Origin: an uncultured Syntrophomonadaceae bacterium
GTDB taxonomy: Bacteria; Bacillota; Dethiobacteria; DTU022
DNA: 64,000 nucleotides
Direction of reading: 5' to 3'
Assembly (NCBI GenBank): GCA_964506505.1
Contig: CAZDKY010000003.1
Span: forward strand, 44,673 to 108,672
In this document: piece by piece, positions 17,594 through 19,884 of the stretch
Numbering within the stretch: position 1 is the stretch's first letter
Layout of the letters: every line of letters starts with the position of its first letter
The notes under the pieces: generated by a model
Told to the model about the DNA's origin: nothing
The model's input: the letters and a program-made list of their open reading frames with translations, nothing else
Databases searched by the model: none
Position numbers and translations under genes: made by a program

Positions 17594-18676
17594 CTAATTG
17601 GTATCACTGCCTCCGGCCCCGCTGCTCTTAAGCATTTCTCGCATTCCATCAGTCTTTTTCATTTTCCCATCGGGTAAAATCCAGAGAGCTTCAAAATTGT
17701 CTAAGCTCTCAACCAGGGCATAACTTTGCTCGAAGGGAACCAGGAAAAGAGTTGTTGACATAAAATCAGCTACGGCGGCGCTGTCGGCCGCTACTGTAAC
17801 TACTCGAAAATGCTCCGCCGGCATCAGCGTTCCAGGGTCAATAAGGTGATGATAAGCTTTACCATCTACCACATAGTAACGCTGGTAATCTCCGCTGGTA
17901 TCAACGCTGCCGCCTGCCAGGTAAATAACATCGAGGAGTTTTTCTTCACCACCAAAAATCGAAGCATCGGGATCCTGCACTCCTATACCCCAACGATCCC
18001 GCTCCTCCTCCGGCGGTGTACCGATGAGGCGAACGTTCCCTCCTGCACTAATGACCCCTGCTGTCAGGCCGGCGGCCTCGATTTCTTCCGCCACTATCTC
18101 CGTGGCAAACCCTTTAGCCACAGCACCAACATCAATGCTCATCCGTGAATCGGCAAGAAAAACAGTATTTTTTTCTGCATCTACGATTACCTGATCCAGA
18201 TCAGTGTAACTGGAGGCCTCAATTAGGTCTTCCAGCGGTGGGACTTGGGCACCGGCAGGGTCGTAATCGGCTTCAATGCGGTAGTGATGCCAGATTTTTA
18301 AAACCGATCCCATGGCTATATTGGTTATGCCACCCGTACGGGTATGCATTTGCTTACTGAAAAGAATTAAATCAATGATTTCCGGCGCCACTTCAACAGG
18401 TTTAATCCCGGCATTATCATTGACAGTTTTGAGGTTGCTAACTCCTTCGTAATTTAGATAAATATCATAAAGCCGGTGCAATTCCATATATCGATCATGG
18501 ATCTGATCCAGGTATCGATCAAACTCTTCCTCGTTGTCCGCATAAGCGACCACCCTGACAAGGGTATCGAAAGTATCAAAAAATGAATCGGTATATTTAT
18601 GTTTGACGGGTTGTTCCGCTCCTGAGCATCCGGCAATAAATAAGCTAAACATCATTATCAGTATGATTTTTTTCAT
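17594..18676 (-). CDS. apbE: FAD:protein FMN transferase (ApbE/Ftp family), lipoprotein
   Basis: Lipoprotein signal MKKIILIMMFSLFIAGCSG and ApbE-like core (..DVGAVAKGFATEIVAEEI.., ..DTSGDYQRYY..). I preferred the ATG at 18676 over the ORF-track start at 18766 because it has a GAGGGA ribosome-binding site. Confidence 0.75.
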   Translation of the reverse strand: MKKIILIMMFSLFIAGCSGAEQPVKHKYTDSFFDTFDTLVRVVAYADNEEEFDRYLDQIHDRYMELHRLYDIYLNYEGVSNLKTVNDNAGIKPVEVAPEIIDLILFSKQMHTRTGGITNIAMGSVLKIWHHYRIEADYDPAGAQVPPLEDLIEASSYTDLDQVIVDAEKNTVFLADSRMSIDVGAVAKGFATEIVAEEIEAAGLTAGVISAGGNVRLIGTPPEEERDRWGIGVQDPDASIFGGEEKLLDVIYLAGGSVDTSGDYQRYYVVDGKAYHHLIDPGTLMPAEHFRVVTVAADSAAVADFMSTTLFLVPFEQSYALVESLDNFEALWILPDGKMKKTDGMREMLKSSGAGGSDTN

Positions 18677-18768
18677 GTTAATCCCTCGTAATATTAATTC
18701 GCCGTTATAAAACACTCCCCTGCCTGAACAGGGGAGTGTTTGTTTCCATCCACTTTTAGGGGGCATTA

Positions 18769-19884
18769 TTACCTGGCATTTTCAGCCGCTTCAGCAACTG
18801 CGGCCAGATAACTTTCGACTGTAATGGTGACCAGGGTTTCCAGCTCGGGGACATCGGGAACATGCTGGTGTGCTTCATCCCTGGTTTTTACCGGCATACC
18901 GGTGATCTCATCTATTGTCTTGCCAACCATCCATTCCTCAAGCGAGGCAATCTGCTCATACCACTCTTTGCCTATTTCTGAGATATTACCCATACCGTAG
19001 TCATCACCGAGCTGCACTTTAGTTTTCGGCGCTGCCGACTTATCGGAAGTGACAGTACCTTCGGCATCATAGTTGATTCTGATCTGGGCATTGTCAATCT
19101 GGGCTCCGACAACTACACCTTCAGCATCAAAAGCCACTGCAGCCATAACCGTATCGACCTGGGCCAAGGGATTAACCTCAGCATCTTCATCAAGCCCCAT
19201 AGACCTGGCTGTTGATATATTCTGCCCCAGGCCGGCTGTCACTGCGCCCTCAACTTCAATTGCATTGTTGTAAGCATACTCGACAGCGGCAATGTAATCT
19301 TCCACAGTGATGGTAACCAGGGTCTCCAGTTCGGGAACATCGGGGACATTCTGATGAGCTTCATCCCTGGTTTTAACCGGCATATTTTTGATTTCTTCAA
19401 TAGTTTTGCCGATCATCCAGTTTTCAAGTTCATTCATCTGTTCATACCACTCTTTACCTATTTCGGAAATGTTACCCATTCCGTAATCATCGCCCCGTTC
19501 ACGCTTCGTTTCCGCCGGCTGGGAAATATCGGTGGAAACCTGCATTCCTTCGTCAAAAGCAACGCGGGTCTGGGCATTGTCAATGGTCACGCTGACTACT
19601 TTCCCTTCTGCATCAAAGAGGACAGCTGCCATCACAACATCTGCCTGAGCTGTCGGATTGATACCGGCATCAAAATCTGCATCTGTCGATTTGGCAACAG
19701 ATGTCACTACACCAAGCCCCAGTTTCTGAGTACCGTCTGTGCCGGTTTCTTCTTCAGGCTCTTCTTCCGGGGTTTCTTCAGGGGTTTCTTCCCCCGGTGT
19801 TTCTTCGACCGGAGCGTCCCCACAGCCGGCAACCAGGAAAATGGCCAGGAAAATAACCAGCAATAAACCTAATCCCTTTTTCAT
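18769..19884 (-). CDS. Lipoprotein with an acidic Pro/Glu/Thr linker and two tandem roughly 155-aa repeats of an unknown domain
   Basis: Signal peptide MKKGLGLLLVIFLAIFLVAGC, then the linker EETPGEETPEETPEEEPEEE, then two highly similar domains each containing ..VMAAVxFDAEGxVV..IDNAQ..GDDYGMGNISEIGKEWYEQ..GKTIxEI..MPVKTRDEAHQxVPDVPELETLVTITVE. GAGGAGG ribosome-binding site. Confidence 0.75.
   Translation of the reverse strand: MKKGLGLLLVIFLAIFLVAGCGDAPVEETPGEETPEETPEEEPEEETGTDGTQKLGLGVVTSVAKSTDADFDAGINPTAQADVVMAAVLFDAEGKVVSVTIDNAQTRVAFDEGMQVSTDISQPAETKRERGDDYGMGNISEIGKEWYEQMNELENWMIGKTIEEIKNMPVKTRDEAHQNVPDVPELETLVTITVEDYIAAVEYAYNNAIEVEGAVTAGLGQNISTARSMGLDEDAEVNPLAQVDTVMAAVAFDAEGVVVGAQIDNAQIRINYDAEGTVTSDKSAAPKTKVQLGDDYGMGNISEIGKEWYEQIASLEEWMVGKTIDEITGMPVKTRDEAHQHVPDVPELETLVTITVESYLAAVAEAAENAR
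18772..19722. repeat. Internal tandem gene-segment duplication, two units of about 470 bp, inside the lipoprotein gene
   Basis: DNA of about 18772-19239 and 19240-19722 is recognisably similar. By eye I estimate roughly 75-80% identity over long runs, for example ..accagggtttccagctcggggacatcgggaac.. against ..accagggtctccagttcgggaacatcggggac.. The two units encode the two protein repeats. Confidence 0.7.

Follow-up and report, generated by a model that had tools for sequence, protein, structure and literature searches.

A surface lipoprotein with paired divergent FMN-binding domains and a variant acceptor motif, encoded next to an ApbE-type flavin transferase

On the minus strand of the 64-kb window (the whole stretch of DNA analysed here) an ApbE flavin transferase gene adjoins a surface lipoprotein gene, and both open reading frames are found where they had been predicted. 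The lipoprotein gene (18769-19884, 371 amino acids) is located 5′, was delineated from the ORF list and encodes a signal peptide and an acidic linker ahead of two FMN-bind2-like domains; according to the ORF coordinates, the gene of the ApbE/FmnB-type FAD:protein FMN transferase (17594-18676, 360 amino acids from Met31; Pfam ApbE, 1e-60) lies 3′ of it. The locus raises the question whether the lipoprotein is a non-canonical substrate of this ApbE or whether the two genes are neighbours by coincidence, alternatives between which the original prediction had not decided. The former is the best-supported reading, and the lipoprotein is probably a PplA-like electron carrier with two flavins, flavinylated by its dedicated ApbE at a variant motif.

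As read from the sequence, the lipoprotein starts with a signal peptide (19822..19884, minus strand) that harbors the lipobox LVAGC and the putatively lipidated Cys21; this Cys21 and the preceding Gly20 are shared by at least 90% of 114 homologues. The acidic Pro/Glu/Thr-rich linker expected from the original prediction is found at residues 22-50 (19735..19821, minus strand). It is predicted to be disordered, with AlphaFold pLDDT values of 49-58 across residues 1-50, and varies in length and sequence in the homologue alignment. The protein has 887 homologues; its family comprises no fewer than 1685 clusters at 50% identity and was recorded in at least 371 species genomes. It is widespread among anaerobic Bacillota, e.g. 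in Alkaliphilus and Geosporobacter, genera with iron-reducing members, and also occurs in soda-lake MAGs labelled Syntrophomonadaceae.

The remainder of the chain is made up of two repeats, residues 51-212 (19249..19734, minus strand) and 213-371 (18772..19248, minus strand), which align without gaps with 96 of 148 residues identical (65%, E = 2e-67) and show the same order of secondary-structure elements in the AlphaFold model. The proposed pair of highly similar repeats is therefore present, each with a length of about 160 rather than 155 amino acids. The duplication is, however, ancient and not recent as had been assumed. The two-repeat architecture is shared by all 120 closest homologues listed and, among the 150 best representatives in the library, by the majority; relatives carry 2, 4 or 6 domains. 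Compared as DNA, the repeats show 64.6% identity with a longest identical run of 17 nt, and only 49 of the 96 identical residues are encoded by the same codon. This codon comparison rules out a recent duplication or a recent gene conversion in this genome.

The AlphaFold model of the lipoprotein (pLDDT 91.5, pTM 0.83) displays strands at residues 52-62, 78-90 and 95-110 and a first helix at 127. A search of the PDB with the family profile matches 2KZX, which scores 24.9 bits with the broader single-domain profile and itself matches Pfam FMN_bind above the gathering score. Both profiles align E-L-T-S-L-V-T onto D-A-I-S-G-A-T of 2KZX (HMMER). The top two PDB sequence matches of the family profile are designed repeat proteins and were rejected as spurious. 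In PMC11334425, 3O6U is given as an example of a flavinylated protein of the FMN-bind1 type. The repeats share the FMN_bind fold and are recognisably homologous to a genuine FMN_bind member. They can no longer be regarded as two unknown domains but represent a divergent form of FMN_bind, namely its larger FMN-bind2 type, which occurs in pairs (PMC11334425), and the structure search pointed to a redox FMN-binding fold, not to a well-known non-redox family.

General family models do not capture this relationship. Neither the lipoprotein nor any of 114 family members matches Pfam FMN_bind (PF04205), even at E = 10, and scanning the lipoprotein itself against Pfam and NCBIfam produced noise-level matches only (e.g. 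DUF2283 and LytA signal-peptide matches). The weak Pfam matches DUF2283, DUF7258 and MAPKK1_Int recurring among the 114 members at E = 10 were treated as noise as well, and NCBIfam holds no model matching even the canonical-motif relatives. Foldseek with the full-length model yielded nothing significant against the PDB. No significant match was obtained with hhalign between the repeat alignment and a five-sequence FMN_bind1 alignment, a poor template in which 2KZX is mixed with much shorter domains.

The canonical motif D..[ST]GA[ST] is absent from the lipoprotein and from its 120 closest homologues, so that the motif scan bears out the earlier statement that neither repeat contains it; nor is it present in any ORF of at least 80 amino acids in the 64-kb window. 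Judged from the alignments, the motif is not simply missing but replaced by a variant in which the putative acceptor Thr is kept at the homologous position. From HMMER alignment and conservation, Thr191 of E185-L-E-T-L-V-T191 (19312..19332, minus strand) and Thr353 of E347-L-E-T-L-V-T353 (18826..18846, minus strand) are the predicted FMN attachment sites. Val190, Thr191 and Val352 are invariant in 114 homologues and Thr353 is conserved in at least 90% of them. Across 519 domain copies the family consensus is [D/E]-L-x-[S/T/A]-x-V-T, with Glu (294) or Asp (212) at position -6, Leu (495) at -5, and Val (450), Cys (40) or Ala (14) at -1. The acceptor position is occupied by Thr in 497, Ser in 21 and Asn in one copy, i.e. 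by Thr/Ser in 518 of 519.

Some family members carry canonical SGAT at this very position, and both kinds of motif may occur within a single chain: SGAT, SSVT and SSAT in one protein (P0143), SSVT and SGAT in another (P0221). Precomputed Pfam FMN_bind matches exist for eight relatives whose two domains both contain [ST]GAT or AGAT. Two further strings were rejected as chance occurrences, namely DRTSGAT, located inside the ApbE itself in one locus, and DAASGAS in the membrane part of Ndh2-like proteins. In all ApbE substrates proven to date, to our knowledge, conservation within the motif is highest at Gly and Ala, and the double change of Gly to bulky Leu/Ser/Thr plus Ala to Val could abolish recognition. 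In the Klebsiella fumarate reductase, the G-to-A and A-to-V substitutions each keep about 50% flavinylation, and the effect of D-to-A is only minor (PMC12052999). A literature search for non-canonical flavinylation motifs gave nothing relevant.

The ApbE reading frame (17594-18766) matches Pfam ApbE (PF02424, E = 1e-60) over the entire profile (positions 1-266 of 266). Translation most likely begins at Met31, whose ATG at 18676 is preceded by a GAGGGA ribosome-binding site. Read from there, the protein begins with MKKIILIMMFSLFIAGC, a putative lipoprotein signal with lipobox FIAGC and Cys17. Its best solved relative is Listeria FmnB (7ESA, 1e-32; PMC8906456), whose Ser257, Arg262, His273 and Asp301 are aligned with Ser261, Arg266, His277 and Asp304 of the window ApbE. 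These catalytic residues, whose roles are taken from PMC12052999, are intact here and kept in 71/71 orthologues. At the position marking the FAD-binding rather than the pyrophosphatase class, the ApbE has a Tyr, found in 66 of the 71 orthologues.

An ApbE orthologue is located directly downstream of the lipoprotein gene in 69 of 77 evaluable species loci, thus in at least 69 other species, and is absent within the flank in the remaining 8. No other neighbour is conserved across the related loci. The adjacency is for these reasons functional and not a product of chance, and the coincidental alternative of the original prediction is abandoned. The spacer from the lipoprotein stop codon to the ApbE start codon contains a perfect 14-bp GC-rich hairpin followed by UUUUAUAA (18710..18741, minus strand); the region folds with -31.3 kcal/mol over 99 nt (z = -3.3). 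Of 69 related loci, 54 have a comparable hairpin 3′ of the lipoprotein stop despite differing sequences, and the element is probably a terminator or attenuator. Rfam matched no family in the window, hence no FMN riboswitch is placed upstream of the operon.

In the window no membrane electron donor adjoins the module, no ndh2, eetA/eetB or dmk genes lie beside the pair, and the neighbours bear no relation to redox chemistry; since a donor is missing there, an electron-transfer role is proposed by analogy. The upstream neighbour of the module encodes a Listeria-type Ndh2, with a Pyr_redox_2 and a DoxD-like membrane domain, in five related loci (L015, L016, L022, L039 and L042). On the other side of the module, four of these five carry genes for a second ApbE, a heptaprenyl diphosphate synthase component I protein and a polyprenyl synthetase. 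A 577-aa neighbour in locus L023 clustered with the Ndh2-like proteins and was discarded as a rhodanese-fused CoA-disulfide-reductase-like protein. Four loci contain, directly after the first ApbE, a second one that is intact and only distantly related (about 30% identity), and in locus L012 a frameshifted second ApbE is found beside a canonical FMN_bind1 gene. These second copies suggest a division of labour between the ApbEs.

Taken together, the lipoprotein and ApbE genes would constitute a self-contained module of substrate and enzyme. The lipoprotein would be exported, lipidated at Cys21 and anchored on the outer face of the membrane, where the disordered acidic tether of about 30 residues would hold the body, in which the paired divergent FMN-bind2 domains are predicted to associate into one two-domain unit. 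The ApbE, presumably a lipoprotein too, would use FAD and Mg2+ and most likely transfer FMN to Thr191 and Thr353 by a phosphoester bond, the variant motif [D/E]-L-x-[S/T/A]-x-V-T taking the place of canonical D-x-x-[S/T]-G-A-[S/T]. By analogy, the two-flavin protein could carry electrons outside the cytoplasm much as Listeria PplA does, relaying them from membrane donors to acceptors or reductases outside the cell. Since S-x-V-T stands in place of SGAT and a gene for its own ApbE lies next door, the protein is probably a form of a known group of extracellular electron carriers that has been overlooked so far. A wider reading appears evenly balanced to us: the ApbEs of this clade may recognise a distinct, Gly-Ala-free motif [D/E]-L-x-[S/T/A]-x-V-T, the co-encoded ApbE being a dedicated, specificity-shifted paralogue and the family one of covalent di-flavin surface proteins missed by motif and Pfam surveys. 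The window ApbE itself may be specialised for the variant motif.

Degenerate FMN-binding domains would offer a different explanation. They would no longer be covalently flavinylated, binding flavin non-covalently or serving as scaffold or partner only, and the ApbE would act on another substrate or hydrolyse FAD to free FMN as in the Treponema Ftp class. The Gly-Ala core missing in all 120 closest homologues, the halved flavinylation of a model substrate after single substitutions at either position (PMC12052999), the failure of Pfam FMN_bind to detect the family and the FAD pyrophosphatase activity of some ApbE/Ftp enzymes (PMC4767422) would all be in line with such a loss. A dead site is nonetheless hard to reconcile with an acceptor Thr/Ser in 518 of 519 copies and with the retained acidic residue at -6 and Leu at -5. 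Moreover, canonical and variant motifs exchange at one position within the family and even within one protein, the ApbE alone accompanies the lipoprotein gene across many genomic contexts, and 66 of 71 ApbE orthologues carry the Tyr of the FAD-binding class. Loss of the modification is thus unlikely.

A role outside redox chemistry, such as ligand binding, adhesion or a function in the cell envelope, would reduce the likeness to FMN-binding proteins to a mere common small alpha/beta fold. It is very unlikely, even though no curated family model matches the lipoprotein and the window neighbours lack a redox link: the homology to a true FMN_bind protein is detected in sequence with the acceptor motif in register, Pfam FMN_bind recognises the canonical-motif members, the ApbE linkage is conserved, and a Listeria-type Ndh2, usually together with prenyl-synthase genes, lies beside the module in five loci. 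Incidental adjacency, in which the ApbE would be the general flavin transferase of the cell for Rnf or other canonical substrates, appears extremely improbable given that the pair is kept in 69 of 77 loci of different species while all other neighbours change, and that four loci contain a second ApbE (about 30% identity) and L012 a frameshifted one. What speaks for it is the strong hairpin, owing to which the two genes may be partly independent transcription units, and the common need for an ApbE to modify RnfG and RnfD of the Rnf complex in anaerobic Bacillota.

Flavinylation at the variant motif would have several consequences. Surveys of extracytoplasmic flavinylation counted substrates by Pfam FMN_bind, DUF2271, DUF3570 or the [S/T]GA[S/T] motif (PMC8238504), and the lipoprotein family slips through all of these filters although it is widespread and accompanied by an ApbE of its own. 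If the variant motif is flavinylated, the accepted ApbE recognition rule is too narrow, flavin-based extracellular electron carriers are undercounted in Gram-positive anaerobes, and an orthogonal enzyme/tag pair for flavin-tagging tools becomes possible. If it is not, the family would clearly exemplify a substrate domain whose modification disappeared while the enzyme was retained, which would require an explanation of its own.

Among the ApbE substrates outside FMN_bind, those of the DUF2271, DUF3570, Flavodoxin_4 and FMN_red families were likewise found via conserved apbE linkage (PMC8238504, PMC11334425), whereas all of them possess [S/T]GA[S/T]-like motifs and their folds are unlike that of the lipoprotein repeats. 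Closer are the single domains of FMN_bind PF04205 (2KZX of C. thermocellum, 3O6U of C. perfringens, RnfG, NqrC), which have the core fold in common with the repeats, as well as the acceptor Thr in the loop right before the last helix. A Y-x-M ... E-W-x-E-Q ... helix segment is found both in the repeats and in 2KZX. In contrast to these single domains, the repeats are larger, contain two insertions, have no Pfam match and lack Gly-Ala in the motif.

The two-domain FMN-bind2 proteins described by Huang, Meheust, Barquera and Light (2024, mSystems, PMC11334425) share the domain size of about 160 amino acids. Their insertions between β1 and β2 and between β3 and α1 correspond to residues 63-77 and 111-126 here, and both kinds of protein have even numbers of domains, 2, 4 or 6 in this family, with a predicted packing into a single unit (pTM 0.83 for the window lipoprotein). 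Like the window lipoprotein, the example described there, NTW96865.1, has no InterPro domain. Contrary to the [S/T]GA[S/T]-like motif of FMN-bind2 proteins with its predicted flavinylated sites (PMC11334425), Gly-Ala is replaced by x-Val in both domains here and in most of the family.

The arrangement of the locus resembles that of PplA and FmnB of flavin-based EET in Listeria monocytogenes, and also of Cad in Enterococcus faecalis, where a flavin lipoprotein of two homologous domains adjoins an ApbE-family gene; this likeness is one of architecture and gene arrangement. PplA is flavinylated at Thr143 and Thr265, which are spaced by 122 residues, compared to 162 between the predicted sites Thr191 and Thr353. 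SGAT motifs have been reported for Cad and PplA orthologues (PMC7074142) and are missing in the window lipoprotein, and the EET genes of the Listeria locus are not found beside the window pair. On the enzyme side, FmnB as the closest solved relative shares Ser, His and Asp as well as the FmnB-specific Arg with the window ApbE. In the relatives the gene set of the Listeria EET locus is partly present, with Ndh2 beside the module in five loci and prenyl-synthase genes in four of them.

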